From: a virus
IMG/VR virus record: IMGVR_UViG_3300020469_000010
DNA length: 64,000 nucleotides
Direction: 5' to 3' (one strand)
Shown here: positions 24,201-50,758 of the stretch, piece by piece
Position numbering within the stretch: position 1 is the stretch's first letter
How the letters are laid out: the number at the start of each line of letters is the position of its first letter
Notes under the pieces: model-generated
The model's input: only the letters and a program-made list of their open reading frames with translations
Database searches by the model: none
Told to the model about the DNA's origin: nothing
Program-made: the position numbers and the translations under genes

Positions 24201-27200
24201 GCTGTTGATTTAGGAATTTCTACTGTTAGATTAGGATTCCAAGGTGGTGAGTTCTCTACGATGCATGGAGGATACACCGGTAGTCAAAATGATATTAAGA
24301 GAAGTTTTGAACTAAAACATAAAGGAGATTTGATCTTTGAAAGAACATTTAATTCTGAAGCACTAGGTACTGTTGTATCAGTAGAAAGTAATGTATTAAA
24401 TCTATCAAATCATTTCTTTGTCAGTGGTGAAGAAGTAACATACACATTCCCAGCTGGTGGTCAACCAATTGGAATAGCAACAACTACTCTTGTTGGAGTT
24501 GGAACTACAACGCACCTTCCACCCACATTATTTGTTATTAAGCAAGACTCTGGTAGTATCTCATTTACAGATACAGCAGAAAATGCACTTAGGTTTAATC
24601 CAAATATAACCATCAACATAACATCTGCTGGAATTGGAACTCAGCATCAAATTACTTCAACAAATAAAGATGCTAAGGGAGTATTTACTATTGACAATAT
24701 GATGCAGTCTCCTATTCAGAGATCTGATATTATTACTACTTTGGTTGAAGATATTTCTTTAGAACAAACTTTAATCAATACTGCGGGTATTACATCAATC
24801 TTTAGTGGAGATATCCTTAAGATTAATGATGAGTTTATGTTGGCAGAAACTGTTGGTGTTGGAACTCAAGAGAAACTGCGAGTAAGAAGACCTTGGCTAG
24901 GATCTGTATTGGGTGTTCATACTACTGGTGATACTATTATTAAGATGTATGGTGATTATACTATTTCAGGGTCTACAATTAACTTCACATCACCACCATT
25001 CGGAAAAGTACCAATTACAGTTGATGTAAACCAATTCGGTATTCCTTTTGTAGATCCAAACGATAGAGACTTTACTGGAATTACTACAAATTCATCTTTC
25101 CAGGGAAGAACCTTCATGAGGTCTGGTAGTATAGACACCAATGCAGAAACTTACAGCAGAAATTACATCTTTGATGATATTTCTACGAGATTTACTGGTA
25201 TTAGATCAGAGTTCCCATTAACTGTTGATGGTGCTAATATAACAGGAATATCTACAGATAATGCAATAATATTGGTAAATGACATTTTCCAACAATCATC
25301 AAGATCTGGTATCAAACCAGTAGTTGGAAACTATACTCTTGCTGAAAACAGTGGTGAAACTACTATTACATTTAATCCACAAACACTGGAACCAGGAGAA
25401 GACATAAACACAACTGATCTACCTATAGGTGGTGTAATCGTATCAGTCGGATCAACAAATGGTCTTGGATATCAACCATGTGTCCCTGCAGGAGGAACTG
25501 CAAATGTCTCTGGATTGGGTACTATCTCCTCTGTAAGTATCGGGAACAGTGGTTCTGGATATAGACCAGGAATTCAAACACATATCGGTGTAAAGGCAGT
25601 TACTTCATCCTCAGTGGATATAATTGGTTCTGCAACTGCATTGAATGGGCACATTACTGAAGTTTCAATATCTAATGATAAAGTCTTCTATGCTCCAAGA
25701 GATATATCAGATGTAATCTACAGCAATACAACTGGACTTACTACAGTTACAACTTCAACAGCACATGAATTGCTCATTGGACAAGAAGTTCTTCTTTCTG
25801 GTATTGCAATGACTTGTGATTACTCTGGTGCTGGTCCGGTCAATATCACTAATGTCATTTATGATAATATTAGTGGTATCATGACTGTTACAACTTCAGG
25901 AGCACATAACTTACAGACCACTGGTCAAAGAAGTGATGTTATTTTCACTGGTATTGCAATGACTTGTGATTTGGATGGTGGAGCATCAACTCACATCTAT
26001 CCAAGAACAACAGATCCATTCTATTGTGGATCTAGAGTAACTACTGTCAATAGTTCAACAGAGTTTGAAACTAATGTCGGTGTTTCCACCGTACCTACTT
26101 TCTATCAGTCTGGTGGTGTTGTACAACCTGTTATTATTGCTCCAAGAGTAAGTAATAATTCTGCAAGCAGAATTGATCCTGCTGCAGATGGAACTCGTAT
26201 TACAAGAATTATAAACAGTACTTCTTTTGAAGTTAATACAGGAATTTCTACAAGAGAACATTTCTATGCAAGATGCGGTGAAGTTAACACACCAATTGAA
26301 ATTGTAATTGATGGTCCGATAGGATACACAAATATTCCGTTAATTTATTCTGATAGTTCTGTTCAAGGAATAGGAACAAAAGCATCTATTGACATGTTTG
26401 TTAGTAGAGATACTTCTATTGCAGAATTTGATTTTAATAATGATGGTTTTGCATATGGTCAGGGTGAAAAGTTAACTATTGCAATAGGTGGAACTACTGG
26501 AATTCCTACTACAGGTTCTTCCTTTAAAGAGTTTGCTATTGATATTGAAAGAACTCACTCCGATGAGTTCTCTGCTTGGAGTGTGGGTCAATTCCAACAA
26601 CTTGATCCATTTGATAGTAAATTTAATGGAAAGAGAACTGTATTCCCAATTTCATTTAATGGTGATAGGATATCAATTAGAGCAGGTGCAGGAAGTAACA
26701 TTGATGTATCATCCACTATATTCATCTTTATTAATGATATTCTCCAGGTTCCTGGACAATCATATCAATTTAGAGGTGGTGGACTGGTAGTCTTTGATGA
26801 ACCAATTCCAAAAGATTATACATCTAGAATCCTCTTCTACAAAGGAACAAAAGATATTGATGTTGTTGAGGTTGATATTGATGAACCAGTAGAACCTGGT
26901 GATACATTAACAATCAATTCCGAAAATATCTCTCTGAAGGAAGATACTAGAACCGTTGAGGAAATATTAGCATCTGATATCGTCCTAACAAATCCATATC
27001 GTGGACGAGGAAGAACTAACGATGAAAGTTTAGAAAGACCAGTGATGCTTTGTAAGCAAACTGAAGATACTTTCATCTATGGATTTGAAGAAACTAAAGA
27101 TAGAGAATCACTAGAACCAAATATTACTCCCAAAACAAACATAATTCAAAGTGTTGGAATTGGAACAACAACAAACTTTGCTTGGGTTGAAAGTGTCAAG

Positions 27201-30906: not shown

Positions 30907-33900
30907 ATGCCACAACTAACGAATCTAAACACCTTTCCATATTTTGATGATTTTGATAAAAAATCTAATTATCATAAGGTTCTCTTTAAACCTGGTCAAC
31001 CGGTTCAAGCTAGAGAACTTACGACAATGCAGTCTATACTGCAGAATCAAATTGAGCAGTTTGGCAACCATGTATTTAAAGATGGTTCAGTAGTAATTCC
31101 AGGTACGCTTTCTGTTAGATCTAAGCAATATAATATTGAACTTGAGAGAACTTTTGCTGGAATTGATGTATTTCAATATACAGATGCATTAACAGGTGTA
31201 GAGATTGTTGGATCTGAAAGTGGTGTTAGGGGAAGAGTAGAAGTTGTAGATGGAAATAGGTTATTTGTCGATATATTAACTTCTGGAAATGAATCGGAAT
31301 TTTCCGAATTTATTGTTGGAGAATCAATTACAACTACAGACACTGTAAATATAACCGAATCAAATATATCAAGTTTTCCTGAAGGAGCTGAAATTGGTGT
31401 AATTGGAAATGTTTTCAGAGGATGTATTGCAAAGTTAACTAGTGGTGTATTTTTCCTACGAGGATATTTTGTAGAAGTTGAAGATTCAACAGTAGTTATT
31501 AGTTCGGAAGAACCAAATCCAACTTGTTCTATAGGATTTTTAATTAATGAATTACTTACTGATTCATTTGATGACGAGTCTTTATATGACAATTCGCAGG
31601 GATTTATTAATTATGCTGCGCCAGGTGCAGATAGACTTCAAATTGAAGTAACACTAGTTACATCATATAGAGGTGAATTTGATGATGAATTTCCACAAAA
31701 TTATGTAGAAATTGCAAAAGTTACTAATGGTACAATATCTTCATCTAAAATTGAAAATCCATCATATAATATTCTTGGTGATGAATTAGCAAGAAGAACA
31801 TTTGATGAAAGTGGTCACTATTATGTAAAACCCTTTACTCTTGATGTAAGAGAATCTTTGAGAGATTTTAAGGGAAATAATGGAATATTTAATGATAGTG
31901 AACTTACCCTATTTGGACAAATTCCTAGAGATGATATTGGTATCTATGATGTTTCTCCAGGAAAGGCATATATTTTTGGATATGAAGTTGACATGTCCTC
32001 AAATTCATTATTGGACTTTTCGAAACCAAGAGAAACAAAACAGTTTGAAGATCAAGCAATAACATATGTAACTGGTCCTACATTATCTCTCAATAGGTCT
32101 TTTGGTGCGCCAGAAGTCGGTGTTTCCACCACATATACACTTTCACTTAGAGATGAGAGAGTAGGTGCTACACAAACAAATGCTCCAGGAAAAGAAATTG
32201 GACTGGCTAGAGTGTATGATTATGCTCTAGAATCAGGATCTTACGAAACTTCAAATCTTGATGCAAACATTTGGGATTTAGCACTATTTGATGTAGTTCC
32301 ATTTACAGATATTGTTGTAAACGAAAGTATTGAATCTGTACAGACTCCAACATTTATCGAAGGTAAAGCAAGTGGTGCTGTAGGATTCTTGAGATATGAT
32401 GTTTCAAATTCTGGAATTATAACTGCGTATAATGTTAGAGGAAACTTTATAAAAGGTGAAGAATTAGTTTTTGATGGAAATGATTCTGATAGAATTACTA
32501 TCGCATCTACAACTTATGGAATATCAAATGTAAAATCCATATTTGGTCAGTCTGGTAGTGGAACATTCTCTGCTGATGTAAGACAATCACCAGAAATTGC
32601 TCTTGGACCTTGTAAGATTGATGGATCAGGAGTAGTAACTCAAGCAGGTAGAGATTTTACAAAAGATTTTATAGTAAATGATCTTGTTTCTTACAGGACT
32701 CCTGGAGGTGCTAGACCAACGGTTAACAGGGTAAGTGCCGTAACGGTAGATGATATTACTTTAGCAGCAGTAGAGAATGTGACAGGTGTCTCTCTAGGTG
32801 CAGTAGCTTCCAATACCGATTCAATTGATATCTTTAAAATTTCAACAAAGATTGCAAATACCAATACTGGAGATGATAACTATCTGTTCACTAGATTACC
32901 TAAGAAGGTAGTTTCAACTGTTGACACCTCTAATAGTGAACTTTCTTTCCGTAAGAGATTTGATACTACAGTTACTCCAGATGCTACTGGTGGAAGAATT
33001 ACAATTCTTCCTTCACAACTGGGATCTACTGAGACATTCTTACCATTTGACGAAGAAAGATATATTGTAATTAATACTAATGGTCAAACTGAAGCACTAA
33101 CACAAGATAAGTTTACTATTACTAGTGGAAATAAGGAATTAATCATAAGAGGTTTATCTGTAACAGGATCTGCAGTACTAATTGCCACATTAAAGACTAA
33201 TGATGTAGAACCTATTACTAAACTTAGAAATAGATTAGAAGCAATTACAGTATCAAAATCTAAACTGCCAGGTTCAGGTATTGGAGCAACAACTTTAAAT
33301 GATGGACTAGAATATGGTAATTATCCATATGGAACTAGAGTTCAAGATAAAGATATTTGTCTGCTTCAACCAGATGTAATGAAACTTCATGGTGTTTTTG
33401 AATCATCTACTGAAGGTGAAGCTGAAATCCCAAATCTAATTCTTAGAGATATTGACAGTTTTAATGGAAGTGCTGAAGATATACTAATAGGTGAAGAGAT
33501 TATTGGTTCTGAGTCTGGATGTGTTGCAATAATTTCAGATGTTATAGACAGTGCAAATGTTGAATTTATTGTAATTAATGATAAAGAATTTATTTTTGAT
33601 GAGAAAATAAATTGCCAAGAAACTGAGATTACTGCGACTATTGATGCAATTACACCCGGTGATAATAATATCACTAACCAATTTACTTTGGTTAGAGGAA
33701 CTAATAATACAATTTATGATTATTCTAGAATTGTAAGAGATTCTTCTTCTGCTGAACCAATCAAGAGTCTTAGAATTTTCTACGAGTATGCAAGTCTAGA
33801 TTCTAATGAGAGTGGATGCTATATGAGTGTTGACTCATATTTCCAGTTTGACTACAAGGATATTGGAAATACAAATGGAATTAGACACTCAGATATTATT

Positions 33901-36900
33901 GATATTAGACCAAGAGTTGATCAATATATTGTAGAGGAAAATAAGAGATCTCCATTTGAATTCTTAGGTAGAGATTTCTTTAACGATCAAAACGATAATT
34001 TAAAAATTCTAGCTTCTGATGAATCCTTAACTTTCGATTATCAAATTTACTTACCAAGAATTGATAAAATTTATCTAAACAAAGATAAAATTTTCCAATT
34101 AAGTCGTGGTGTTTCTGCAGAAAATCCAGAAGAACCATCTCTAATTGAAGATGCAATTGAAGTTGCTCGTATAGTTTTACCAGCATATCTCTTTAATACT
34201 TCAGATGCAAAGTTAAGTCTCTCAACTTACAAACGATATCAAATGAGAGATATTGCTGGATTGGAAGATAGAATTAAAAATCTTGAGTATTATACTTCAC
34301 TATCTTTACTTGAGCAAAGTACTGCTAACTTAGAAATTAAAGATTCTGCAGGCACCGATAGATTTAAATCTGGTTTCTTTGTAGATAATTTTACAACAAC
34401 TACAAATCAAATAAAACTTGGTGCTAAGAACAGTATTGATCCTAGAACTAAAGAATTAAGACCAGCAGCATACACCACACAACTAGATTTACTTTTAGGT
34501 TCAACAGAACTAACTGGTGTTGGTGGAGAAAAAAATCTAAATGCAGATCCAAGATATGTAACTGATTTAATTGGTGAAGATATTAGAAGAAGCACCGTTG
34601 ATCCCAATGGAAATGCTGGTTCTGATGGTATGGGAATCATAACTCTAGATTATGAAGAAATTGAATTAATTTCTCAAGATACTGCTACAAGAGTAGTAAA
34701 CGCAGCACCATATTTTGTAACTTTCTATAAAGGAACTATTACTCTCAATCCATCATCAGATATTTGGGTTGAACAATCTAGAGTTGAAACACAAACTGTT
34801 GAAGGTTTGATTGGTGGTTATTCTGTCACTAATATTGAAGCAAAACCCTCAGACTTGGATCCTCAGGCAGGATGGTCTCCAATTCTATGGGGTGGATGGA
34901 ATGAAGAGTGGACTGGTAAGAAAGTTACTAATAACTCAGTTAGAGATAAAGCTTCATCTATAGATGATGGAGTTAAAGTAACTGCATCTACCACAATAGT
35001 TTCACAGACAACTACTAATACAGGAACAGCAACTCAGCAAGGTTTATCAACACAGATAGAAACTGTTCCAGGAAATAATATTAATCTTGGTGATAAAATT
35101 ATTGCAAGTAATGTTTCTTCATTCCTAAGGTCTAGAAATATTGAAGTTCTTGCTAGAAGATTAAAACCACTTACAAGAATGTACGCATTCTTCTCTGGAA
35201 TAAATGTAACAAATTACTGTATTCCAAAATTAATTGAAATTGAAATGATCGGTGGAACCTTTAGAGTTGGAGAAACCGTTGAGAGTACAACAAGAACTCC
35301 AGGAATTATTGAAGATAAACCATATATTAAATTCAGAGTAGCACAACCTAGACATAGAAATGGTGCATACAATGACCCGATTGATGGATATGGAACAAGT
35401 CCATATAATGGAGCAGATTTACCTGAAGATTATTCCGTAAGTTCAAAGTTATTGAATGTAGACTTGACTTCTCTTTGTTTACAAGCACAAGGAGATTTTT
35501 ATGGATATATTAGTCCAGGAATGACTCTGGTTGGAAAATCTAGTGGAGCTAGAGCAAGAATTTCTAATGTCAGACTAGTATCAGATAATACTGGATCTCT
35601 ATTCGCATCATTCTATATTCCAAATTCTAATTCTAAAACTGCTCCTAGATTTAAATCTGGAAATAATACCTTAAAAATTCAAGATAATGCCAACTTGAAT
35701 GCAATTTCGGGTACTTTAAATTCTGCAACAGAAGGAACATATTTCTCACAAGGAACAATTGAGCAGGTTCAAGGATCTATCATTTCTACAAGAAATGTCG
35801 AAGTTACTAATGCATATACAACACAATCTCAAGCAATTTTTGATGAACAAACAACAATTACTGGTGTTGATGTAGATCTTACTGTATCGGTAACTCCACA
35901 ACCAATTCCAAGACCAATCCCGCAACCGAAACCACAACCCAAACCACAACCAACACCTAAACCACAACCACAACCTAGACCCAGACCAACACCAAAACCA
36001 AAACCACAACCTAAAGCACTTCCACCAGTACCTAATCCAAAACCAGAGCCAAGACCGCAACCTTTGGCTCCACAACCAAAACCAGCTATACCACCAAAGG
36101 TACAACCAAAACCAAGACCACAACCTAAAGCATCTAAGCCACCAAAACCAAGACCAAAACCTAAAGCAACATTCAAACCACCCAAGTCTCGGCAGAAGGA
36201 TGATTCCAATCCAAGGCCGTTGCCACCAAAAGCAAAGCCAGTAAAGCCAGTACCAAATCCAAAACCAAAGGCTGTAGCTAATCCACCTAAGCCAAAACCA
36301 AAACCGCACGCTACTCCAAAACCACAACCCAAACCCAATCCCAATCCAAAGCCCAATCCACCACCACCGGTGGTAGCACCAAAGAAACCACCAACAAATC
36401 CCAAGCCAAAGCCCAAGAAACCAAAACCAATCCCCATTCCAAAGCCCAAGCCTAAGAATCCCAAGCCAAAGCCCAAAAAACCAAAACCAATCCCCATTCC
36501 AAAGCCCAGACCGGTAGGTGATAGGCCAGGTGATGAGCCAACACCAAGACCACCGGCATTTGTTGAACCACCAGAGGATTATGATGATCCTCTAGCGCAA
36601 TCCTTCTTTGTTGGAGGAGAAAATTATAAAACTGGAGTATTTGTTACTTCCGCAAGTCTCTACTTTAAGACTACATCGGATGCAGAATCCTGTTTTGTCC
36701 AACTAAGACCAATGGTAAATGGATTACCTTCACATAAAGCGTATCCAATGTCCAATGTCGTTCTTCAAGGTGCTGATGTTGTAATTTCAGAGGATGCTTC
36801 TGTCCCAACAATTGTTACATTCCCATCACCAATTTATTTGGAAGGAAACAAAGAACATTGTATTGTAGTTGGATCTAGATCTACTGCTTTCAATCTATGG

Positions 36901-39051
36901 GTTTCCAGATTAGGTGAGGTTGATGTTTCAAATCTAGATTTGCCAGAATCTGAGCAAGTTCCGATTACGAAACAAGCAAATCTTGGTTCACTATTTAAAT
37001 CTCAGAACAGTTATACTTGGACACCAAGTCAATATGAAGATTTGAAGTATTCTCTCAATAGAGCAGAATTTACTGATCGAGGATCAATTAGTTTCTTTAA
37101 CCCAGATTTATCTAGAGGAAATGGACAAATTGCTATCTTGAAAAAAGATGCTCTCGTATCATCTTCTAGACAAATTGTTGTTGGACTTGGAACTACTGCT
37201 AATGGATTTGGTACTGAAATTGTACCAGGAAATACCGTTATACAAGATGATACTACTGGAACAGGTAACTTTGTAATGGGTCTCGGTATTGCTACCGGAA
37301 ATCTAACAGTAGTAAATGCTGGACTAGGTTTAACACCATCATCCGGGTTCTTCGATTATCCAGATGTAACTCTGACTAGGGTAACTGGTAGAGGTGAAAA
37401 TGCAGTTGCAGATATTCATGTTAATAACGGTGTGGCAGTTGCTGCAACTATTACCTTCGGTGGTAATGGATTTAAAGTCGGTGATATTGTAACTGGAATT
37501 GTTGGTGAAGGAGTTGGTAGAAATCTACAACTGTCAATTGCTGAGATTCATGGAATTAATGAACTTGTTATAGATCAAGTTCAAGGTGATTTCGTTGTTG
37601 GTACTGGAAAAACACTGCGTTATATCAATTCTTCTGGTGTAACTTCAGAATTCAGTGCAAATTCTACTGTAACTCTTGATACAACCCCCAGAATAATTAA
37701 TGACGGTTTACACATAAAAGTAAATCATCTAAATCATGGTATGCATTCTGGAACCAATAGAGTAAACATTGTTGATGTTGCTTCTGATATTCCATCTTCT
37801 GGTCTAGGAATTGATATTAATGAGACTCAAACAGTAGATCTTGAAGTAGGTGATGCAAGTCGTTATTCCACATTTGAAGGTATTGGGATTGGAACAACTA
37901 ATCCTGGTTACATTAAGATTGATAGTGAAATTATAGGATACACAACTATAACTGGAAATGTCATAGGTGGACTAACAAGAGGTGTTGATAACACCTCTGC
38001 AACTGGACATGAAAGTGGATCACTAGTTATGAAGTATGAATCTTGTGGAGTTTCTTTGAGAAGAATTAATAAAATTCATGATCTTCAAGATGCAACAGTT
38101 AATGAGGCACTTGGATTAGATCATTATAATATTCGTCTTGATATGAGTGCTGAAACTGGTGAGGATAGAACTGCTTCAAGTACTTTCCCAGAGTTGTTCT
38201 TGAATGAAACAAAATCATTCGGTGGAGTTGGAATTCAAGCATCACAGAACATTAGTTATGAAATCATGAAACCAATTATATCTACTATGACTCTCCAGAA
38301 AACTAATATTTCTGCTAGAGCAAGAACGGTAAGTTCAAGTAGTATAAGTGGAAACGAAGTTGCATTCATTGATCAAGGATATGAACAAATTTCCTTGGAT
38401 AAGGATAATTACTTCGAAACTCCTAGATTGGTTGCATCTAATGTAAATGCTGATAATCTTCTTACAAATGTTCCTGGACAAAAGTCCTTTGAAATTGAAC
38501 TAACACTAGACAGTTATGATAGTAGACTATCACCAATTGTTGACTTAGATAGGGTCGGTGCAATCTTTGTTTCTAACAGAGTTAATGAAGTAATTAGTGA
38601 TTATTCTTCTGATAGAAGAACTGCTTCAATTAAGGATGATCCAAATGCGTTCATTTATGCAACGAAACCAATTGAATTAGAAATTCCAGCAAATAACATA
38701 AGAGTTCTTGCTGCTGCTTATATTAATAATTTCTCTGACATTCGTGCATTCTATGCAATTACCAATAATCCAGATGAAGAGTTAATTTATTATCCCTTCC
38801 CAGGATTTAGTAATTTACTAGAAAGTGGTCAGGTTATTGATTCTAATAAGAATGATGGAACTTCAGACTCCTTTGTTTCACCTGTTGATAATAAAGGATT
38901 TGAATCAGTATCCTTGGCATTCAAAGATTATGAATTCACCATTGAAAACTTACCATCATTTAAGTTCTTCAGTGTGAAGATGGTGGCAACATCTAGAACT
39001 CAGTGTTACCCACCAAGAATCCGTGATTTCCGAGCAGTCGCATTTGCATAA
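30907..39051 (+). CDS. Large virion structural protein, VrlC/DUF4815-like (2714 aa)
   Basis: PYFDDFD...VQARELT; APGADR; LARRTFDESG; RFKSGFFVDNF; DPLAQSF. Confidence 0.85.
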   Translation: MPQLTNLNTFPYFDDFDKKSNYHKVLFKPGQPVQARELTTMQSILQNQIEQFGNHVFKDGSVVIPGTLSVRSKQYNIELERTFAGIDVFQYTDALTGVEIVGSESGVRGRVEVVDGNRLFVDILTSGNESEFSEFIVGESITTTDTVNITESNISSFPEGAEIGVIGNVFRGCIAKLTSGVFFLRGYFVEVEDSTVVISSEEPNPTCSIGFLINELLTDSFDDESLYDNSQGFINYAAPGADRLQIEVTLVTSYRGEFDDEFPQNYVEIAKVTNGTISSSKIENPSYNILGDELARRTFDESGHYYVKPFTLDVRESLRDFKGNNGIFNDSELTLFGQIPRDDIGIYDVSPGKAYIFGYEVDMSSNSLLDFSKPRETKQFEDQAITYVTGPTLSLNRSFGAPEVGVSTTYTLSLRDERVGATQTNAPGKEIGLARVYDYALESGSYETSNLDANIWDLALFDVVPFTDIVVNESIESVQTPTFIEGKASGAVGFLRYDVSNSGIITAYNVRGNFIKGEELVFDGNDSDRITIASTTYGISNVKSIFGQSGSGTFSADVRQSPEIALGPCKIDGSGVVTQAGRDFTKDFIVNDLVSYRTPGGARPTVNRVSAVTVDDITLAAVENVTGVSLGAVASNTDSIDIFKISTKIANTNTGDDNYLFTRLPKKVVSTVDTSNSELSFRKRFDTTVTPDATGGRITILPSQLGSTETFLPFDEERYIVINTNGQTEALTQDKFTITSGNKELIIRGLSVTGSAVLIATLKTNDVEPITKLRNRLEAITVSKSKLPGSGIGATTLNDGLEYGNYPYGTRVQDKDICLLQPDVMKLHGVFESSTEGEAEIPNLILRDIDSFNGSAEDILIGEEIIGSESGCVAIISDVIDSANVEFIVINDKEFIFDEKINCQETEITATIDAITPGDNNITNQFTLVRGTNNTIYDYSRIVRDSSSAEPIKSLRIFYEYASLDSNESGCYMSVDSYFQFDYKDIGNTNGIRHSDIIDIRPRVDQYIVEENKRSPFEFLGRDFFNDQNDNLKILASDESLTFDYQIYLPRIDKIYLNKDKIFQLSRGVSAENPEEPSLIEDAIEVARIVLPAYLFNTSDAKLSLSTYKRYQMRDIAGLEDRIKNLEYYTSLSLLEQSTANLEIKDSAGTDRFKSGFFVDNFTTTTNQIKLGAKNSIDPRTKELRPAAYTTQLDLLLGSTELTGVGGEKNLNADPRYVTDLIGEDIRRSTVDPNGNAGSDGMGIITLDYEEIELISQDTATRVVNAAPYFVTFYKGTITLNPSSDIWVEQSRVETQTVEGLIGGYSVTNIEAKPSDLDPQAGWSPILWGGWNEEWTGKKVTNNSVRDKASSIDDGVKVTASTTIVSQTTTNTGTATQQGLSTQIETVPGNNINLGDKIIASNVSSFLRSRNIEVLARRLKPLTRMYAFFSGINVTNYCIPKLIEIEMIGGTFRVGETVESTTRTPGIIEDKPYIKFRVAQPRHRNGAYNDPIDGYGTSPYNGADLPEDYSVSSKLLNVDLTSLCLQAQGDFYGYISPGMTLVGKSSGARARISNVRLVSDNTGSLFASFYIPNSNSKTAPRFKSGNNTLKIQDNANLNAISGTLNSATEGTYFSQGTIEQVQGSIISTRNVEVTNAYTTQSQAIFDEQTTITGVDVDLTVSVTPQPIPRPIPQPKPQPKPQPTPKPQPQPRPRPTPKPKPQPKALPPVPNPKPEPRPQPLAPQPKPAIPPKVQPKPRPQPKASKPPKPRPKPKATFKPPKSRQKDDSNPRPLPPKAKPVKPVPNPKPKAVANPPKPKPKPHATPKPQPKPNPNPKPNPPPPVVAPKKPPTNPKPKPKKPKPIPIPKPKPKNPKPKPKKPKPIPIPKPRPVGDRPGDEPTPRPPAFVEPPEDYDDPLAQSFFVGGENYKTGVFVTSASLYFKTTSDAESCFVQLRPMVNGLPSHKAYPMSNVVLQGADVVISEDASVPTIVTFPSPIYLEGNKEHCIVVGSRSTAFNLWVSRLGEVDVSNLDLPESEQVPITKQANLGSLFKSQNSYTWTPSQYEDLKYSLNRAEFTDRGSISFFNPDLSRGNGQIAILKKDALVSSSRQIVVGLGTTANGFGTEIVPGNTVIQDDTTGTGNFVMGLGIATGNLTVVNAGLGLTPSSGFFDYPDVTLTRVTGRGENAVADIHVNNGVAVAATITFGGNGFKVGDIVTGIVGEGVGRNLQLSIAEIHGINELVIDQVQGDFVVGTGKTLRYINSSGVTSEFSANSTVTLDTTPRIINDGLHIKVNHLNHGMHSGTNRVNIVDVASDIPSSGLGIDINETQTVDLEVGDASRYSTFEGIGIGTTNPGYIKIDSEIIGYTTITGNVIGGLTRGVDNTSATGHESGSLVMKYESCGVSLRRINKIHDLQDATVNEALGLDHYNIRLDMSAETGEDRTASSTFPELFLNETKSFGGVGIQASQNISYEIMKPIISTMTLQKTNISARARTVSSSSISGNEVAFIDQGYEQISLDKDNYFETPRLVASNVNADNLLTNVPGQKSFEIELTLDSYDSRLSPIVDLDRVGAIFVSNRVNEVISDYSSDRRTASIKDDPNAFIYATKPIELEIPANNIRVLAAAYINNFSDIRAFYAITNNPDEELIYYPFPGFSNLLESGQVIDSNKNDGTSDSFVSPVDNKGFESVSLAFKDYEFTIENLPSFKFFSVKMVATSRTQCYPPRIRDFRAVAFA
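35893..36575 (+). repeat. Low-complexity Pro/Lys/Gln coding tract with a 60-bp-period duplication (36397-36448 / 36457-36508)
   Basis: About 225 aa of PKP/PQP/PRP; duplicated unit 51/52 identical. Confidence 0.9.
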
Positions 39052-41977: not shown

Positions 41978-42991
41978 ATGTTTGATTATTTTTACCACGA
42001 AATATTAAGAAAAACTATCATTGGGTTTGGTACGCTCTTTAACGATATTATTATAAAAACTACAAATAGTGCTGGTGAAGTAACGTCAACAGAAAAAGTT
42101 CCACTTGCATATGCACCTCAACAAAAATTTCTTGCAAGATTAGAACAATCTGAAGATTTAAATAAGGCAACTCAAATAACATTACCAAGAATGTCATTTG
42201 AGTTTACTGGGTTGCAATATGATTCATCTAGAAAAGTAACTACAACTCAAAAATTTGTTAGTCCTTCACCAACTGGTGATGGTACGATTAAAAAATCGTT
42301 CATGCCAGTTCCATATAATATGGAATTTGAATTGAATATTTACGCAAAATTGAACGATGATGCTCTTCAAATTGTAGAGCAAATTTTACCATACTTTCAA
42401 CCTTCATATAATCTAACTATAACTTTAGTATCAGATATCAATGAAAAAAGAGATATTCCAATTATTTTAGAGGGAATATCAATAGATGATCAATATGAAG
42501 GTAATTTTGATAATAGAAGAGCATTAATTTATACAATAAGATTTAGTGCTAAGACATATCTATTCGGTCCTGTTGCAAGAGATGTATCTGCAAATATTAT
42601 CAAGAAAGCAGATGTTGGATACTATGCAAGTTCAACTAGTGGAGATAAAAATAATAGAGATGTCACATATTCTACTGTTCCTAAAGCACTAGAAGAACTT
42701 GATAATGGTGTATTGACAACAACCACATCTGACATTAGTAAAACTGACGAGACTGTTCAACTTAGATCAATAGCAAATATAACAGAGGAAACATATATTT
42801 CTATTAATAGTGAAGTCTTATTCGTTAAACAAAAATCTGATTCAGAAAATAAAATTCTTGTCAGAAGAGCACAAAATGGAACTACAGCAAGATCTCATGT
42901 TTCTGGTACAAATGTGACCGAAATTACATCTGGAGATAATGCATTGGTTGAACTTGGTGATGATTTTGGATTTGATGGAGGATTTATTTGA
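41978..42991 (+). CDS. gp15: Tail sheath stabiliser gp15
   Basis: YFYHEILRK...VPLAY.P; TLPRMSFE; QIVEQILPYFQP. Confidence 0.92.
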   Translation: MFDYFYHEILRKTIIGFGTLFNDIIIKTTNSAGEVTSTEKVPLAYAPQQKFLARLEQSEDLNKATQITLPRMSFEFTGLQYDSSRKVTTTQKFVSPSPTGDGTIKKSFMPVPYNMEFELNIYAKLNDDALQIVEQILPYFQPSYNLTITLVSDINEKRDIPIILEGISIDDQYEGNFDNRRALIYTIRFSAKTYLFGPVARDVSANIIKKADVGYYASSTSGDKNNRDVTYSTVPKALEELDNGVLTTTTSDISKTDETVQLRSIANITEETYISINSEVLFVKQKSDSENKILVRRAQNGTTARSHVSGTNVTEITSGDNALVELGDDFGFDGGFI

Positions 42992-43452
42992 TGTCTAAAC
43001 TAGATGAAACTTTTAATGTATCCTCACCAGAACCTGATGAGGATAAATCTGATGTTGTGGATATAAATGCGGAAATTGTAGAATCTACAAACGAAAATAT
43101 TAGTTTAGAAAAAACAGAGGATACTGAAAAAGATTATGAATATACTAGAGGAAATCTCTATTCTTTAATTGAAAAAGGACAAGAAGCAATAAATGGTATT
43201 CTTGAACTTGCACAAGAAACCGAGCAACCAAGAGCATATGAAGTTGCTGGATTGTTAATAAAAAATGTTTCTGATGCAACTGATAAATTATTGGATTTGC
43301 AGAAAAAAATGAATGATTTGGATCAATCTACCAAAAAACAAAATCCAACAACAGTTAATAATGCGTTATTTGTTGGATCGACAGCAGAACTGTCAAAACT
43401 TTTGAATAGTAAGTCATTTAAAAATATACAAAACGAAACCTTGAATAAATAG
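42991..43452 (+). CDS. gp16: Terminase small subunit gp16
   Basis: DYEYTRGNLY...PRAYEV...NNALFVGSTAEL. Confidence 0.92.
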   Translation: MSKLDETFNVSSPEPDEDKSDVVDINAEIVESTNENISLEKTEDTEKDYEYTRGNLYSLIEKGQEAINGILELAQETEQPRAYEVAGLLIKNVSDATDKLLDLQKKMNDLDQSTKKQNPTTVNNALFVGSTAELSKLLNSKSFKNIQNETLNK

Positions 43453-43490: not shown

Positions 43491-46400
43491 ATGGGTATTT
43501 CTACCATTCGTCTTAAAAGATCTTTTTCTCAAGGATCTCAACCAACAATTGAGCAACTGACTGATGGTGAATTAGCCATTAATCATTTTGATGGTACTGT
43601 CTTTGTAAAGCAAGACACTCAAGGTGTTGGTATTAATACTAGAGTCGTACAAGTTGGTGCAGGTAAAAGTATTGGACGTACTTTCTTTGTTATTCAACAA
43701 GGAGATGATAATAATTTAGGATTAACGCAAGCAGATGGATTGGCATCCATTAAGAGAGCATCTCAACTTGCACAACCAGGTGATACTATTAAAGTTTCTG
43801 CTGGAATATATGTTGAAGATAATCCAATTATTCTTAGAGATAATGTATCTGTAGAAGGATTTGAATTAAGAAACTGCTATGTTGCACCAAATAATCCAGA
43901 TCAAGATTTATTTCATATCAATAATGCATGTCACTTAACTGACTTGGCATTTATTGGTAAAGGTGCAGATATTGGTGGTGGTTCTAAAGGTGTTCCTGCT
44001 GGTGGATCTGAACCAGGATTCCTCGGAGGACCAGTAGACTCTGGAGTTGCTGTTGTAGCATTTGTTCCACTTAAAGGTGTTTCGGGAGACAGATATTTTG
44101 ATGCCGCAAGACTGATTCGACAGAATGCGGATTATATTGCTGGTGAAGCAGTTGGATTTTTAACTAGTGGTTTTAGTGGTATTGCTGGTTCTCATAGAGC
44201 ACAAGATGCTGCAAGACTTATTGATCTAAATGCAGAATTTATTGCAGCAGAGGCAGTAGGATTTATCACTAGTGTAAATTATGTTGGTGGTGCATTCTCA
44301 ATGTCATTCGGTACAGCAACAGACTGTAAGGATGACGTTCATGATGTTTTAGAGGTAGTAGCACATGATTTAAGAGCAGGATATAGGGCAGGAGTTCAGG
44401 CAAATAAGAAAACTGTAGGTGCTGCACAGTCATATTTTGTTGGTGGAGCACTATCTCACATTCTAGGTGCTGGAGTTTCTGAAGCAACGATTGCTGCAAT
44501 GGATCGTGCTGCTGGTATTGCAACCTTTGTTATCAATAACAAACCATATGGATTTGAAACTACTGGTGCTGGTGTTGCTGTAAGTGCATTTGATTATACT
44601 GCAAATACTGGTGTTGCTACAGTTACAACCACAGTCGGTCATGGATTGAGCACTACAGACCATGTTGAATTTGCTGGATTAGCATTTACATGTGCAACAG
44701 AACATGCTGGTGTTACTACAACAATTTTCCCAGATGGTTTTGCTCCTTCTGGTCATATTTTCAAAATTGATGCTAGTGGAACATTTAATGAGAGTCAGTT
44801 TGTTATTAATGCTGGTATCTCTACTATTCAAACATTCTATACAGCAAGTTCTGGAACAGCAAAAACTGTCACACAATACAGTCCATTTGAGCAACAATTT
44901 GATACTGGAGCAGCTGCAGGAACACCTCTTCGTGGTGAAAATGTAGTTGGTGGTGTAAAGGAAACAGTTACAAATGCAACTTATGACCCTGCTACTGGTT
45001 TAACAGTATTAACTATAGGTTCACATAAACATACCGTTGGTAATAGTATCAGAATTCCTCTAGAAGCATTAGTCTTTACTTGTTCTCAAGATGGTGGTGT
45101 TTCTGAGCATAAGTATCCTCGTGCTACAGACCCTGCTAATGGAAATGATCTTCAAATACTTTCAACAACTGGTACAACTATAACAGTTAATACTGGTGCT
45201 TCTGGTCCATCCGATCAATATGCACACACATTTGTTCGTGCAGAGAAAAGGATTATTGTTGGTGGTGGACTTTGCCTCAATGTTATCAAAGATATTAAGA
45301 ATCTAGTCGGCATTATAACCAGTGCTATTGGTGCAGGCAATACAGGTAGTCTTCCTGGAATTACAACTGGTGTAAGACTAGAGCAGAATAAGTGTCGTAG
45401 GGATGTTACTAAAATTCTTAAGGCTGTTTGTTATGATATCACCCGTGGTGGTAACACCAAAGTCATTGGTGCTGCAAAGTCATATTTCGATGATCAAGGA
45501 AATAGACTTTCCGCACTTTTGGTAGATCCTGACGAATTTGAACAATCTGTTATTGCAGTAGAATATACTAAAGATTTGTGCAGAAGAATTGTTAATAATG
45601 TAAGGGATGGTTCTTATACAATTGGAACAGCCTTCCATGTTTCTGATGCATTGTATTCTCCAACATCAGGTATCATGACTGTTACCACTCAAGTCGGTAA
45701 TGGATTAACTGCTGGAAATACTATTAAACTTTCTGGATTAGGATTTAGTTGTGGTGCTCATAATAATGAAATTTCTATAACCGATTTCCAGTATGACAGA
45801 CAATCTGGTTTTAGTACTATCTTTGTAAGTTCAGATCACGGATTAAGTTCTGGTGATGAATTTGAACTTCGTAATATTAAAATGAATTGTGGTGATTCTG
45901 GTACTGGTCCAGTTGTTAATGTAACAGCAGCAGCATATGATGAAGCACTAGGTGATATTGTTATAACAACTTCTGCAGCACATGGAGCACACATAGGAAA
46001 AACAATACAAGTTAAGAATCTTGAATTTAGTTGTGCTGCAGAACATGCTGGTGTTACTACAACAATTTTCCCAGATGGAACTGGAACAAGTAACTTTATT
46101 CAGGGTTATGGTAAAGATGTATTTTTAGTTACTGCAACACCATCAACAACTCAATTTAAAATTAATGTAGGTATATCCACAATTGCTCATAGTTATGTTT
46201 CTGGTGGTACTGCACAAGCAGGTATAACTACATCAATTTATCCAGATGGTGTACAAGGTGGTGGTGATGCAATCTTTGATGCATATGTTGGTACTGGTGG
46301 AACAGTTATCTTTACAAATGTAGGTATCTCTACAATTGAACATACCTATGATTCTGGAGGTCAAGTAAGGATAGGTGTTACTACATCTGTTTTCCCAGAT

Positions 46401-48254
46401 GGAACTTTTGGTGATTTCTTTGACATTCAGAGTCGTCTTTCTGACAGTCAATTTACAATTAATGTTGGTATGTCAACTATTGCTCATGTATATAAGAGTG
46501 GAGGAATAGTTCAAAAGACCAGATCCTTTAGACCAGACATAGGTCAAATCAGAGATATAAGTATTCAAGCAGATCCAGATACTGGAAATAATAATACTGT
46601 TGGTAACTGTAAGAATGTTATTTCTGCTGTAAATACTGCAGTTGGAATTTGCACTGCAATCATTGAAAATGGATTCCAAGCACTTCAAGAACCAGTATAC
46701 TTAGAAGTATCAACCGCAGCATATACTGCTAATAATGGAATACTTACATTAAATACAACAACTAATCATAATCTCTCTAACGGTGATAAAATTAAATTAA
46801 GAAATAATTCTATTATCTTTACTTGCGATTCTGATGGTGGAAATACTCAAATTGGATATCCAGATAAAACCAGTCCAATTTTTGATAGGTTTATTCCAGT
46901 TACAGTTACTGGTGCTACCTCACTGACTGTTAATACAGGAGACGCTGGTACTGCATCGACACTAACTCATAGTTTTGTTTCTATTGCTGGAACACAAACA
47001 ATTAATTATGGTGGTGCTGGAATTTCTACTAGATTCCCAGGTAATAATGGTGCTGGATCTGATTTTGAAAATGATCCATCATTCTCTCCTGGAACTGACG
47101 GACCTGTTCTAAAAGGTCCATATATCAGAAACTGTACTAACTTTATCGAAAACAGCATCGGTATGAGAATCAATGGATTTGATTCTGATCCTGGTGATAA
47201 AGATGAATTGGGTGTACAGGGTTCAATGAGTGTTGACTCATATACTCAATATAATCAAGGTGGTATTGGTGTATCAATTACAAACGGTGCATATGCACAG
47301 TTGGTGTCTATCTTCACCATCTGCTGTAATGAAGCAATTGTAACCTTAAGTGGTGGTCAGTGTGACCTTACAAACTCCAACTCCTCATTCGGTGAGTTTG
47401 GTCTAGTTTCTAAAGGTGTTGGTGATGAGAACTCCCGTTCCAACTATAGACAAACTGCTGAAGTTGTCAAAGCAGGTGATCCTGGTAGAACAAATGCTCA
47501 AGGTCCATATGATGTTGGTTCCAGAAGAGTTACTTTATCTGGTGTCGGTACACAAAGACCTTATGATGGTCAGACAGTATTCTTCGATGAACTCTTCTTC
47601 TCTGTAGAAAAAGTTAAAATTACCAACGAAGGTTCTGGATATGAAGGTGCTGTACCAGGAGTTACTTTCTCCGATCCAACTGGACCTCAAGGAATTACTG
47701 CACAAGGAATTCCAATTGTTGAAGATGGTAAAGTTGTCAGTTTCTTAGTTGCCAACTCTGGAACTCAATATCAAAAAGATTCTTTCCCATCAATTACTAT
47801 TACACCACCTGAAGGTGATGGTGTACAGGCAACTGCAGAAGTTGAAAGGATGCAACCACTATTCTTTAAGGTTGCTTCTGCAACACTCCCACATAGTGGA
47901 ATCTCAACCGTCACAATGAGTCAAGGACTAAATAATTCATTGAGTGGTGGTGAAACTGCGTTCATGACTCGTCAGAGTCTGCAAATCACATCTTCTCACT
48001 CTTTTGAATATGTTGGTGCGGGTAATACTATCCTAACAGCAAGACCTTCAGTTGGAGGTATCATTATTCAGGATAATGAAGTTGTTCAGGAAGATGGTGG
48101 TCTTGTAGTTTACACAAGCACGGACCAAGCAGGTAACTTCAGAATTGGTGATGGTATTCAAATTGACCAGGCAACTGGAACGATCTCAGGTCGTGTTTAT
48201 GTCAAATCATTGTTCAACAGCGTTACACCATTTATTCTAGCACTCGGAGGTTAA
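43491..48254 (+). CDS. Tail fibre/spike-like protein (1587 aa): beta-helix scaffold with inserted helical (phycobiliprotein-like) and His/Cys beta modules
   Basis: IRLKRS...GELAIN fibre N-terminus; GDTIKVSAGIY.E and PYIRNCT...YAQLVSIF beta-helix motifs; internal repeats; late promoter. Confidence 0.75.
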   Translation: MGISTIRLKRSFSQGSQPTIEQLTDGELAINHFDGTVFVKQDTQGVGINTRVVQVGAGKSIGRTFFVIQQGDDNNLGLTQADGLASIKRASQLAQPGDTIKVSAGIYVEDNPIILRDNVSVEGFELRNCYVAPNNPDQDLFHINNACHLTDLAFIGKGADIGGGSKGVPAGGSEPGFLGGPVDSGVAVVAFVPLKGVSGDRYFDAARLIRQNADYIAGEAVGFLTSGFSGIAGSHRAQDAARLIDLNAEFIAAEAVGFITSVNYVGGAFSMSFGTATDCKDDVHDVLEVVAHDLRAGYRAGVQANKKTVGAAQSYFVGGALSHILGAGVSEATIAAMDRAAGIATFVINNKPYGFETTGAGVAVSAFDYTANTGVATVTTTVGHGLSTTDHVEFAGLAFTCATEHAGVTTTIFPDGFAPSGHIFKIDASGTFNESQFVINAGISTIQTFYTASSGTAKTVTQYSPFEQQFDTGAAAGTPLRGENVVGGVKETVTNATYDPATGLTVLTIGSHKHTVGNSIRIPLEALVFTCSQDGGVSEHKYPRATDPANGNDLQILSTTGTTITVNTGASGPSDQYAHTFVRAEKRIIVGGGLCLNVIKDIKNLVGIITSAIGAGNTGSLPGITTGVRLEQNKCRRDVTKILKAVCYDITRGGNTKVIGAAKSYFDDQGNRLSALLVDPDEFEQSVIAVEYTKDLCRRIVNNVRDGSYTIGTAFHVSDALYSPTSGIMTVTTQVGNGLTAGNTIKLSGLGFSCGAHNNEISITDFQYDRQSGFSTIFVSSDHGLSSGDEFELRNIKMNCGDSGTGPVVNVTAAAYDEALGDIVITTSAAHGAHIGKTIQVKNLEFSCAAEHAGVTTTIFPDGTGTSNFIQGYGKDVFLVTATPSTTQFKINVGISTIAHSYVSGGTAQAGITTSIYPDGVQGGGDAIFDAYVGTGGTVIFTNVGISTIEHTYDSGGQVRIGVTTSVFPDGTFGDFFDIQSRLSDSQFTINVGMSTIAHVYKSGGIVQKTRSFRPDIGQIRDISIQADPDTGNNNTVGNCKNVISAVNTAVGICTAIIENGFQALQEPVYLEVSTAAYTANNGILTLNTTTNHNLSNGDKIKLRNNSIIFTCDSDGGNTQIGYPDKTSPIFDRFIPVTVTGATSLTVNTGDAGTASTLTHSFVSIAGTQTINYGGAGISTRFPGNNGAGSDFENDPSFSPGTDGPVLKGPYIRNCTNFIENSIGMRINGFDSDPGDKDELGVQGSMSVDSYTQYNQGGIGVSITNGAYAQLVSIFTICCNEAIVTLSGGQCDLTNSNSSFGEFGLVSKGVGDENSRSNYRQTAEVVKAGDPGRTNAQGPYDVGSRRVTLSGVGTQRPYDGQTVFFDELFFSVEKVKITNEGSGYEGAVPGVTFSDPTGPQGITAQGIPIVEDGKVVSFLVANSGTQYQKDSFPSITITPPEGDGVQATAEVERMQPLFFKVASATLPHSGISTVTMSQGLNNSLSGGETAFMTRQSLQITSSHSFEYVGAGNTILTARPSVGGIIIQDNEVVQEDGGLVVYTSTDQAGNFRIGDGIQIDQATGTISGRVYVKSLFNSVTPFILALGG
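44698..46078 (+). repeat. Perfect 40-bp direct repeat (44698-44737 / 46039-46078)
   Basis: cagaacatgctggtgttactacaacaattttcccagatgg occurs twice. Confidence 0.9.
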
Positions 48255-48257
48255 ATC

Positions 48258-48596
48258 ATGGCAGCAGTCGCAGTTAATAACTTTAGAACAATCACAACTG
48301 TAGTTGGAACTGGAGCACCAGTAGAAATTTATACTGCTCCAACTGGTTATACATCGGTCTTCTTACTTCTCCAAGTAACGAATACTGATAGTGCAACAAG
48401 AACTGTAACATTTAATCATGTAAGAACTTCTACAACCACAGAACTTGTTAAGGAATTTCCCATTCCTGCAGGTGATAGTTTAGATTTACTGGCAGGAAAA
48501 TTGGTATTACAAACTGGAGATAAAGTATCAATTACTGGAAGTTCGGCGGGTGTATTAAAATTTTGTGCATCTGTTCTTGAAACATCTAACTTCTAA
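48258..48596 (+). CDS. Small structural/fibre-associated protein
   Basis: IYTAP.G...GKLVLQTGD motif; GGAGG RBS. Confidence 0.8.
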   Translation: MAAVAVNNFRTITTVVGTGAPVEIYTAPTGYTSVFLLLQVTNTDSATRTVTFNHVRTSTTTELVKEFPIPAGDSLDLLAGKLVLQTGDKVSITGSSAGVLKFCASVLETSNF

Positions 48597-48613: not shown

Positions 48614-50758
48614 ATGTCACGCAGAAGATACTTCTCTGGAAGAGAAACCGAACTTAAACTTGGTGTTGCTGGATATACTGGTACTGGAGTTGCTCTTGAA
48701 GTAACAGAAGGTAGAGTTGGTTTAGGAACAACCACTGCATATCATCAACTCACCATTAATGGTGATATGCAACTCCAGAATGAACTTTATGGTTTTGATG
48801 GTAAGTCAGGTAATGATGGTGAATCATTAATTTCGACCGGATCTTCTGTTTTTTGGGGCCAACCAGTTGTACAGTTTGCAGGTATTACTGTTGAAGAAGA
48901 AGGTGTAACTGTTGGTGGTCTTAGTAGTATTAAAACATTAAACTTTGTTGGTCAAAGTATTTTAGCAACTGCAGATGGTACTGGTGGTATTGCCACTATA
49001 ACTGTGGATGACTTTACACCATCTGGTGAGAATACAAATGTTCAATTTAATGATAATGGGGTATTTGGTGGGGCAGAAACATTAGTATTCAACAAACTTT
49101 TAAATAAAGTTGGAGTTGGTTCTACTGCGTTTGGAGATGAGACACTTTTTGTAACTGGTAATGTTGGTATTACTAGTGAACTCAATGTAGATAAAGTATT
49201 TGTTACAGATAAGACGCCGATTCTTCCAAATGAACTTGCCTCGAAAGAATACGTCGATCTTTTTGCAACAGCATCACTTGTAGTTCAGCAGGCTGTAGCA
49301 GTTGCGTCTACAACTAATGTAAATGCCACATATAGTAACGGATCTACAGCAGGTATTGGTAATAGTACATTAGGTGTAGGTGCCAAATTAACAGGAAATG
49401 TAAATGGTGAATTAATTCTTGATGGTTATAAAGTTTTAGATGATGATAGAATTCTAATTAAAAATCAAACTAATGAAGCACATAATGGATATTATGTGGC
49501 GATTTCCACAGGTAGTCCTTCTGCTCCATTTATTATAGAGAGAGCACAAGATTTCGACCAACCTGATGAGATTATCGAAGGTGCATTCTCCTTCGTAACG
49601 AACGGTAGTCAAAACGGTGCTAACGGTTTCGTTCTTATTAAAATTGATCCTAAATTTACTACTGATGGAACATCATTTGTTGGTTTCTCCACAATTAGAT
49701 TTACACAGTTCTCTGCTGCTGGTCAGGTAGAAGCAGGTGATGGTCTGTTTAAAGAAGGATCTGTTATCAATGTTGGTACTGCAGATACTACAAGAATCAT
49801 CGTCAATCCAGATGATATTGATCTTGCTATAGTAGTTACATCATCAACATTTAATGATACACAAAACGAGAAATTCTTTGTTAATGATATTATTACTGAT
49901 GGATATGGACGAGTAACTGGATTCACTACTGATAGGCATAAATTTGCAACCTTTAATGATGTAGGTGTTGTAAAACTTGATTTTAATGCGTTTAATACAG
50001 ATCCAGCTACAGGAATCATTACTGCTGCAAATTACTTTAATGTAAGGAATATTAATTTACCTTTCCAGAATGATTCAGATGCAGGTATTATTACTGCAAG
50101 ACTTATAAAAGGTGCATCTGTCGATACTAGTGGTGATATCTTAGCAATTAGACATGGTAATTTTAGTGGAATTGTTACTGCTTCAAATTTTGTTGGTGAT
50201 GGATCTCAATTAACAGGACTTATTTCTGGTATTGCAATTCAAAAAGATGATGCAAATGTCGTTACTGAGGGAACGATCTTAAACTTTGAAGGAACTGCAG
50301 TTGCTAGTGTTGTTTCAGAATCTAGTGGATCTAAAGCAACTGTTACTATCAATGCTACAGACATTAATGCAATTGGTTCTGCAAACCAAGTTCTATTCAA
50401 AAATGCTTCTAACCAAGTAACAACATCTTCAAACTTACAGTTCAATGGAACTAACTTAACTTGTGCCGGAACAGTTACCGCAAACTCTGACGAAAAACTG
50501 AAGAAAAATGTAGAAACTATCACTGATGCACTTGATAAAACAACAAGTCTTCGTGGTGTTGAATTTGATCACAAGAAGACAGGTGATCATTGTTTAGGTC
50601 TCATTGCACAAGAAGTTGAGAAAGTAATTCCAGATGTTGTTTACGAAGATAGTGAAGGTACTAAATCAATTGCTTATCAAAATATTGTTGCACTTCTAAT
50701 TGAAGCTGTTAAAGATCAGCAACAGCAGATTGATGAACTTAAGAAAAGACTAAACTAA
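48614..50758 (+). CDS. Tail fibre protein with C-terminal intramolecular chaperone (peptidase S74)
   Basis: SDEKLKKNV...LRGV.F...GLIAQEVE.V.P..V...LLIEAVK coiled coil. Confidence 0.88.
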   Translation: MSRRRYFSGRETELKLGVAGYTGTGVALEVTEGRVGLGTTTAYHQLTINGDMQLQNELYGFDGKSGNDGESLISTGSSVFWGQPVVQFAGITVEEEGVTVGGLSSIKTLNFVGQSILATADGTGGIATITVDDFTPSGENTNVQFNDNGVFGGAETLVFNKLLNKVGVGSTAFGDETLFVTGNVGITSELNVDKVFVTDKTPILPNELASKEYVDLFATASLVVQQAVAVASTTNVNATYSNGSTAGIGNSTLGVGAKLTGNVNGELILDGYKVLDDDRILIKNQTNEAHNGYYVAISTGSPSAPFIIERAQDFDQPDEIIEGAFSFVTNGSQNGANGFVLIKIDPKFTTDGTSFVGFSTIRFTQFSAAGQVEAGDGLFKEGSVINVGTADTTRIIVNPDDIDLAIVVTSSTFNDTQNEKFFVNDIITDGYGRVTGFTTDRHKFATFNDVGVVKLDFNAFNTDPATGIITAANYFNVRNINLPFQNDSDAGIITARLIKGASVDTSGDILAIRHGNFSGIVTASNFVGDGSQLTGLISGIAIQKDDANVVTEGTILNFEGTAVASVVSESSGSKATVTINATDINAIGSANQVLFKNASNQVTTSSNLQFNGTNLTCAGTVTANSDEKLKKNVETITDALDKTTSLRGVEFDHKKTGDHCLGLIAQEVEKVIPDVVYEDSEGTKSIAYQNIVALLIEAVKDQQQQIDELKKRLN

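Follow-up and report, generated by a model that had tools for sequence, protein, structure and literature searches.

The DNA analysed here is a stretch of 64,000 nucleotides (nt) from the IMG/VR virus record IMGVR_UViG_3300020469_000010 (hereafter the window), which forms part of the genome of a T4-like cyanomyovirus, a marine T4-like cyanophage. Its nearest deposited genome is that of Synechococcus phage S-SCSM1 (Kyanoviridae), with 79% nt identity over the fibre gene considered below and 91% identity in the portal protein. The window encodes, at 43491..48254 (+), a fibre-type virion protein of 1587 amino acids (aa), P0001, identified by its matches to PHROG tail-fibre families and by the annotation of its S-SCSM1 orthologue (79% nt identity) as 'long tail fiber protein (virion protein)'. 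P0001 contains two copies of a helical module resembling phycobiliproteins, and this module is the subject of the present work.

An iterated hidden Markov model (HMM) over 121 homologues defines the module as a unit of ~125 aa with four helices, present in two copies in P0001, at aa 238-364 and 592-715 according to this model, and in up to five in the homologues. Module 1 (aa 238-364; 44202..44582, +) scores 109 bits against the module HMM, is similar to module 2 and aligns to CpcA/B in hhalign; module 2 (aa 590-717; 45258..45641, +) scores 141 bits and is additionally described by an AlphaFold model with its Foldseek and VIA-align comparisons. When P0001 was compared with itself, aa 256-359 and 606-712 proved to be paralogous (E down to 1e-11), each followed by beta domains that recur many times. 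Given this self-comparison and the boundaries of the module HMM, both globin-like modules are contiguous, with the beta domains lying between them. The original prediction had seen beta modules inserted into the globin fold, an arrangement rejected on the same grounds, as segments 238-364 and 590-717 are uninterrupted and nothing needs to be removed from them. The beta-domain repeats between the modules (aa 365-589; 44583..45257, +), recognized as internal repeats, recur in a 4324-aa open reading frame (ORF) of the window and in the module-free phages P-SSM2 and S-SSM7, and a further array of internal beta-domain repeats follows module 2 (aa 718-1037; 45642..46601, +). The C-terminal fibre domain (aa 1173-1587; 47007..48251, +) matches phrog_3442 and phrog_17885, shows 43-48% identity to P-SSM2 ORFs and is common to the fibres of module-free phages. 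Small beta domains at 44583-45257, 45642-46601 and 46674-47000 (+) give weak E1_FCCH or endosialidase beta-barrel-like Pfam signals. The module HMM found no match in the other ORFs of the window, including those of 4324 and 2714 aa.

The original prediction was built on six motifs of the 1587-aa ORF, grouped in three sets, and all six lie at the residues it assigned when checked in the translation of 43491-48254. Set (a) comprises RYFDAARLIRQNADYIAGEAVGF (aa 201-223) and RAQDAARLIDLNAEFIAAEAVGF (aa 236-258); set (b), NKCRRDV... (aa 633-654, with Cys635, Arg637 and Asp638) and TDCKDDV... (aa 277-297, with Cys279); and set (c), GNCKNVIS... (aa 1038-1058, with Cys1040) and GLCLNVIK... (aa 593-613, with Cys595). 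The phycocyanin sequences quoted in that prediction agree with real cpcA and cpcB genes from cyanobacterial genomes (CpcB: GDCSALMSEIAGYFD), and the phycobiliprotein likeness of the helical motifs was confirmed, set (a) corresponding to helix B and set (b) to helix E with its Cys84/Arg86/Asp87 site. Set (c), previously taken for the beta-subunit Cys153/155 site, a G-D-C motif before the last helix, had to be reassigned: Cys595, at module column 8, opens the helix-B equivalent of module 2, the helix to which set (a) also belongs, and it aligns to residues ~36-39; the 153/155 assignment was rejected. The first helix of the module is represented by both set (a) and set (c), as two sequence subtypes, and the second helix by set (b). 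A Cys at column 8 occurs in only 35-43% of modules. Furthermore, the helices at aa 201-223 and 1038-1061, proposed earlier as parts of a second fold, turned out to be orphan copies. The one is a helix-B-type repeat holding the first copy of set (a) (aa 201-234; 44091..44192, +), with a partial HMM match to module positions 2-24 (E 0.008). The other is an amphipathic helix with Cys1040 (aa 1038-1061; 46602..46673, +), recognized by BLAST self-matches, which resembles both the last helix of module 1 (aa 328-350) and the first helix of module 2 (aa 593-616); within P0001, aa 328-390 match 1038-1099 with E 2e-9, and aa 593-616 match 1038-1061 with E 0.005. The module HMM found no full module at this second site.

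The relation of the module to phycobiliproteins was examined with profiles built from phage modules alone and searched against all PDB chain sequences (177,635). A 12-sequence profile reached a best E of 7e-4, with C-phycocyanin alpha accounting for 31 of 34 matches; a 34-sequence profile reached 4.4e-4, the top 60 matches all being phycobiliproteins, both alpha and beta; and a 128-sequence profile reached 5.7e-6, again with phycobiliproteins in all of the top 60 places (including phycoerythrin, phycoerythrocyanin, cryptophyte beta subunits and an allophycocyanin). The register was constant across the three profiles, module positions ~5-66 corresponding to phycobiliprotein residues 37-103, and in this profile alignment the module Cys falls on Cys84, the Arg on Arg86, the Asp on Asp87 and the Gly-Gly pair on residues 102-103. 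Profile-profile comparison by hhalign of 128 modules with 72 CpcA and 70 CpcB sequences from 80 cyanobacterial loci gave a probability of 95.6% (P 1.2e-8) against CpcA, 91.4% (P 9e-7) against CpcB and 96.8% (P 2.9e-10, score 61.7, 66 columns) against both together. As controls, reversed alignments scored 13 and 11, 40 column shuffles did not exceed 16.8, and 40 shuffles of 7-column blocks did not exceed 31. A distant homologue, P0042, gave a sub-threshold match to PF00502 (18.4 bits, E 0.0022; gathering cut-off 22.2 bits). P0001 alone had no Pfam match at E<=1, and hence lies below the PF00502 gathering cut-off, and a single-sequence phmmer search with it against the PDB found no match; the signal therefore depends on the family profile.

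A first AlphaFold prediction of the module, made with 34 sequences, had a mean predicted local distance difference test (pLDDT) score of 51.5 and was discarded. With 128 sequences, the model (m1684d7b2dc0e) reached a pLDDT of 75.2 and a predicted template modelling score (pTM) of 0.64, and comprised four helices (positions 4-25, 44-63, 67-74 and 91-112), of which the Cys-bearing helix exceeded a pLDDT of 90. In a Foldseek search of the PDB with this model, all 50 matches listed were phycobiliproteins, with template modelling (TM) scores by query of 0.52-0.60, probabilities up to 0.99 and 120-135 aligned columns. VIA-align, a structure comparison that ignores sequence, ranked phycoerythrin beta first among 48,161 representative chains (Z 8.3, root-mean-square deviation 3.5, 118 of 128 residues aligned, chain residues 30-161), followed by two allophycocyanins and the ApcE bilin domain (Z 7.8-7.4) and then by other globin-like folds; all of the top five were phycobiliproteins or the ApcE bilin domain (Z 8.3-7.4). 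An ESM Atlas structure search returned only matches with TM<0.5 from unrelated families, and an Atlas language-model search gave no usable match. Each structural score is moderate when taken alone, and together they suggest, with moderate confidence, that the module core adopts the globin-like phycobiliprotein fold. The original prediction of such a fold was supported, with agreement among the 128-sequence profile, hhalign, Foldseek and VIA-align. Since three different measures (HMM against sequences, profile against profile, and structure) name the same family, the modules are very probably true, highly divergent homologues of the phycobiliprotein globin core, from helix B to helix G/H, without the X-Y hairpin.

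Residue conservation was assessed over the 128 modules, which share <70% mutual identity and have a mean column identity of 22%. Cys occupies position 0 in 96% of them and Asp position +3 in 99%, position +2 is Arg in 62% and Asp in 29%, and Gly is found at +18 and +19 in 82% and 85%, respectively. Other positions are also strongly conserved: Asp or Asn at +14 (99%), Asn at +20 (98%), Tyr at +30 (98%) and Asn at +66 (87%). According to the profile alignment, module 2 of P0001 carries the full triad of Cys635 (45393-45395), Arg637 and Asp638; in module 1, which has an insertion in the GGN turn, Cys279 occupies the Cys84 position and Asp282 that of Asp87, with Asp281 in place of Arg86. Judged from these alignments, the bilin triad of the Cys84/Arg86/Asp87 type appears to be retained, whole in module 2 and with its Arg replaced in module 1. 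The original prediction had allowed that the cysteines might instead form disulfides. A single Cys is found in 60 of the 128 modules, at the Cys84 position in 59 of those 60, so disulfide bonding is not the reason for the conservation of this Cys and was rejected as an explanation for the family.

The module shares its globin-like helical core with the alpha and beta subunits of phycobiliproteins (PF00502: C-phycocyanin, phycoerythrin and allophycocyanin) and with the ApcE bilin domain. Phycobiliproteins provide its best sequence, profile and structure matches and have in common with it the colinear order of helix B, loop and helix E, the K-C-x-R-D ... G-G pattern at identical spacing, and the bilin-holding residues Cys, Arg and Asp. 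However, the module is shorter (~125 aa versus 160-175 aa), its C-terminal half is not alignable by sequence, and Asn (+20), Tyr (+30) and Asn (+66) are invariant residues peculiar to it. The module also lacks the X-Y helical hairpin of the alpha-beta monomer, which serves alpha-beta pairing, because it starts at the helix-B equivalent (phycobiliprotein residue ~30-37) and is flanked by beta domains. Whereas phycobiliproteins are free antenna subunits with bound bilin, the module is embedded in 1-35 copies in giant virion fibre proteins, scores below the PF00502 gathering threshold and has a putative chromophore. The photocobilin bilin domain, the RsbR/stressosome non-heme globin, globin-coupled sensors and colicin pore domains show the same general helical arrangement (VIA-align Z 5.4-7.3), but they rank below phycobiliproteins and have no sequence similarity to the module, a likeness of fold class only.

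Searched by tblastn against 50,697 phage records, the two module types matched 173 and 353 records, all from Synechococcus or Prochlorococcus phages; the module-bearing records among the matches listed were all 158-244 kb in size. At E<=0.001, an exhaustive profile search retrieved 1,565 representative proteins, a single one of which can hold as many as 35 modules. The P0001 orthologue is the sole module-bearing gene of S-SCSM1 and of a 154-kb relative. S-RSM4 carries 14 modules. The fibres of P-SSM2 share with P0001 the N-terminal domain (aa 5-157), the beta domains and the C-terminal domain (aa 1161-1587, 43-48% identity), and no match to P0001 aa 190-365 or 590-716 was found in that phage. 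Two short fibre genes of P-SSM2 (NC_006883, 214883-216721 and 16338-17960; open frames of 617 aa and 1128 aa) have the same N- and C-terminal domains and no helical modules, and can be regarded as natural module-less controls. Such a module-free scaffold implies that assembly of the fibre scaffold does not require the modules, a point in favour of their being accessory.

Phage CpeT, a homologue of T-type phycobiliprotein lyases and a putative partner rather than a relative of the module, is the product of a bilin-handling gene confined to cyanomyoviruses (PMC10452541). Its co-occurrence with the module was determined in 20 phage records, using profile A3 for the modules and PF06206 for CpeT. 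Modules and a CpeT-family gene were both present in 14 of the 20 (S-SCSM1, four IMG/VR contigs, P-HM2, S-PM2, Syn9, P-SSM4, P-RSM4, P-SSM7, Syn33, Syn19 and S-RSM4) and both absent in the other six (P-SSM2, S-CRM01, S-TIM5, P-TIM68, S-SSM7 and S-SM2), with no discordant record (Fisher p 2.6e-5, uncorrected); among the records tested, all those with modules thus had CpeT and all those without modules lacked it. The CpeT of P-SSM7 is divergent (28.6 bits summed). In the portal tree, the clade of the window, with S-SCSM1, has both traits and is nested (support 98) among four phages without either. Bilin reductase (PF05996) was detected in two of five module-bearing records and heme oxygenase (PF01126) in one of five, and neither tracks the modules. 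The co-occurrence of fibre modules with phage bilin genes, proposed as a test in the original prediction, was therefore seen for cpeT, in 20 records without discordance, and was not seen for the bilin synthesis genes, with no bilin reductase in three of the five module-bearing records. S-SCSM1 carries both a CpeT-family gene, with the homologue at NC_070962 175312-175530, and a ferredoxin-dependent bilin reductase, and the 154-kb relative carries CpeT; by analogy with these two genomes, cpeT and bilin genes may be located elsewhere in the phage from which the window derives. Regarding the portal gene itself, its match in P-RSM4 (NC_015283, 115592-117193) contains an in-frame TAA and that in Syn33 (NC_015285, 108158-109748) is split over two frames, interruptions that could be due to sequencing error, frameshift or insertion.

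The P0001 gene belongs to a structural block, located 3' of the neck genes, gp15 and terS (42988-43452, assigned by PHROG) and 5' of further fibre genes, terL and the sheath, tube and portal genes. Directly 3' of it lies a 112-aa ORF (48258-48596, +), and a gene of 112-119 aa was found 3' of the homologous fibre gene in all metagenomic contexts fetched. The 112-aa ORF matches the first third of phrog_1276, the later part of which matches the fibre beta domains, and its product may be a conserved partner or assembly factor. The following 714-aa ORF (48614-50758, +) has many PHROG tail-fibre matches and a C-terminal part like that of long-tail-fibre distal subunits; its counterpart in a related contig carries Peptidase_S74. 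The window also contains two giant ORFs, one of 4324 aa (15219-28193, +), which has beta-domain repeats in common with the P0001 fibre, and one of 2714 aa (30907-39051, +), which corresponds to the 'VrlC' virion protein of S-SCSM1.

P0001 is very probably a modular virion fibre, in which a conserved scaffold, made of an N-terminal domain, beta-domain repeats and a C-terminal fibre domain, carries two optional ~125-aa helical modules. These modules keep the residues by which phycobiliproteins hold their bilin, namely the Cys that forms the thioether, the Asp in contact with the pyrrole nitrogens and, in most copies, the Arg paired with a propionate. In the most likely reading, a bilin (phycoerythrobilin, PEB, or phycocyanobilin, PCB), made by the host or by the phage, would be attached to the module Cys during assembly in the cyanobacterial cytoplasm, with the phage CpeT-family protein acting as lyase or as bilin-delivery chaperone, and the virion fibre would end up carrying a chromophore. 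The virus particle may carry bilin because the modules keep the attachment residues and because, in the 20 records, they occur only together with cpeT; we consider it about evenly balanced whether the retained site is in fact loaded in this way. Concerning the role of such a pigment, the most appealing possibility, though a doubtful one, is that a light-driven conformational switch gates adsorption. P-SSM2 adsorbs in the dark and P-HM1 and P-HM2 fail to do so, and the adsorption of S-PM2 is light-dependent yet independent of photosynthesis (PMC6628666). Module counts are five in P-HM2, 11 in S-PM2 and zero in P-SSM2; set against light-dependent adsorption, these counts fit the idea of light sensing, in an anecdotal comparison of three phages. 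The full proposal, in which covalent bilins loaded by CpeT onto cyanomyovirus fibre modules form a phage-borne photoreceptor that makes adsorption light-dependent, is likewise speculative, and we would not expect it to be correct in its entirety.

Several observations weigh against the pigmented fibre and the homology on which it builds. The sequence alignment covers the N-terminal half of the module only (helix B to helix E), the C-terminal half matching by fold alone; the Foldseek E-values of the model are 0.1-0.7, the confidence of the model is moderate, and a Z of ~8 is attainable by helical models through arrangement alone. Asp replaces Arg86 in 29% of modules, including module 1 of P0001, and the near-invariant residues at +14, +20, +30 and +66 are not conserved in phycobiliproteins and might reflect another ligand or a polar core; it is chiefly these module-specific residues that keep a non-bilin reading open. 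On the portal tree, the joint trait of modules and cpeT needs two changes, that is, two independent contrasts, both concordant; as two contrasts are too few for a sign test, the co-occurrence cannot reach significance. No cpeT, bilin reductase or other bilin gene homologue was found in the 64-kb window, as the original prediction had noted. T-type lyases are known for the beta-155 site and not for Cys84 (PMC10452541), whereas the module keeps a site of the Cys84 type. Coloured or fluorescent cyanophage virions have not been reported in the literature searched. With regard to the proposed partner, work by Gasper et al. in 2017 is said to have found that phage CpeT binds PEB tightly and reportedly did not load host beta-phycoerythrin directly.

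The main rival is a structural exaptation without pigment, in which a captured phycobiliprotein gene now provides rigid helical spacers or knobs and the Cys, Asp, Asn and Tyr residues form a buried polar network or capping for folding. It is a serious possibility, though we lean against it. Modules strung together like a building block in giant structural proteins, with up to 35 copies, speak for it, as do the invariant Asn/Tyr/Asn set absent from phycobiliproteins, the loss of Arg86 in 29% of copies, the missing X-Y hairpin and part of the C-terminal helices, and the lack of reports of pigmented virions in the literature searched. Nevertheless, folding alone hardly explains an unpaired Cys kept in 96% of modules at ~22% identity together with the bilin-contacting Asp and, mostly, the Arg; the fibre scaffold of P-SSM2 exists without modules; and the strict co-occurrence with cpeT in 20 records would become a coincidence.

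Two other explanations depart further from a bilin-binding module. The globin-like pocket might have been reused for another ligand, such as a metal ion, heme or a host surface molecule, held by the Cys/Asp/Asp/Asn/Tyr cluster, a reading that is compatible with a helix-E equivalent that bears Cys (0), Asp (+3), Ala (+10) and Asp/Asn (+14) along one face and with the near-invariance of Asn (+20) and Tyr (+30). The ligands of globin-like folds are diverse, and heme globin sensors, photocobilin and RsbR are also among the VIA-align matches. We find this quite improbable, since no known metal or heme motif is conserved (there is no His), the best sequence relatives are bilin-binding proteins with the bilin triad in register, and the cpeT linkage points to bilin. 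Finally, the likeness might be a chance or convergent one between amphipathic helices, with no ancestry shared with phycobiliproteins. P0001 alone has no Pfam or PDB match, the Foldseek E exceeds 0.1, a Z of 8 does not settle the matter for helical proteins and the ESM Atlas searches gave nothing. This explanation is already disfavoured and very improbable, because HMM-sequence searches, profile-profile comparison and structure-only alignment all put the same family first, significance rises with profile depth, and the reversed and shuffled controls score 11-31 against 61.7.

The modules represent a large uncurated family of 1,565 representative proteins without a curated Pfam model of its own, and no description of the domain turned up in the searchable literature, which leaves most subscription journals outside its coverage. 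If the modules bind bilin, they would constitute a new setting for the phycobiliprotein fold, the third after the antennae and the cryptophyte complexes, and, to our knowledge, the virion would be the first phage particle known to bear a pigment. The cpeT and bilin synthesis genes of cyanomyoviruses are assumed to aid assembly of the host antenna (PMC10452541); an acceptor in the virion, with perfect co-occurrence with cpeT over 20 records, suggests another purpose for phage bilin genes, and one that can be tested. On the phage side of light-dependent adsorption, a fibre domain with a bilin site is a concrete candidate, and the photoreceptor reading, if true, would supply the substrate that phage cpeT has so far lacked and account for light-dependent adsorption in S-PM2, P-HM1 and P-HM2.

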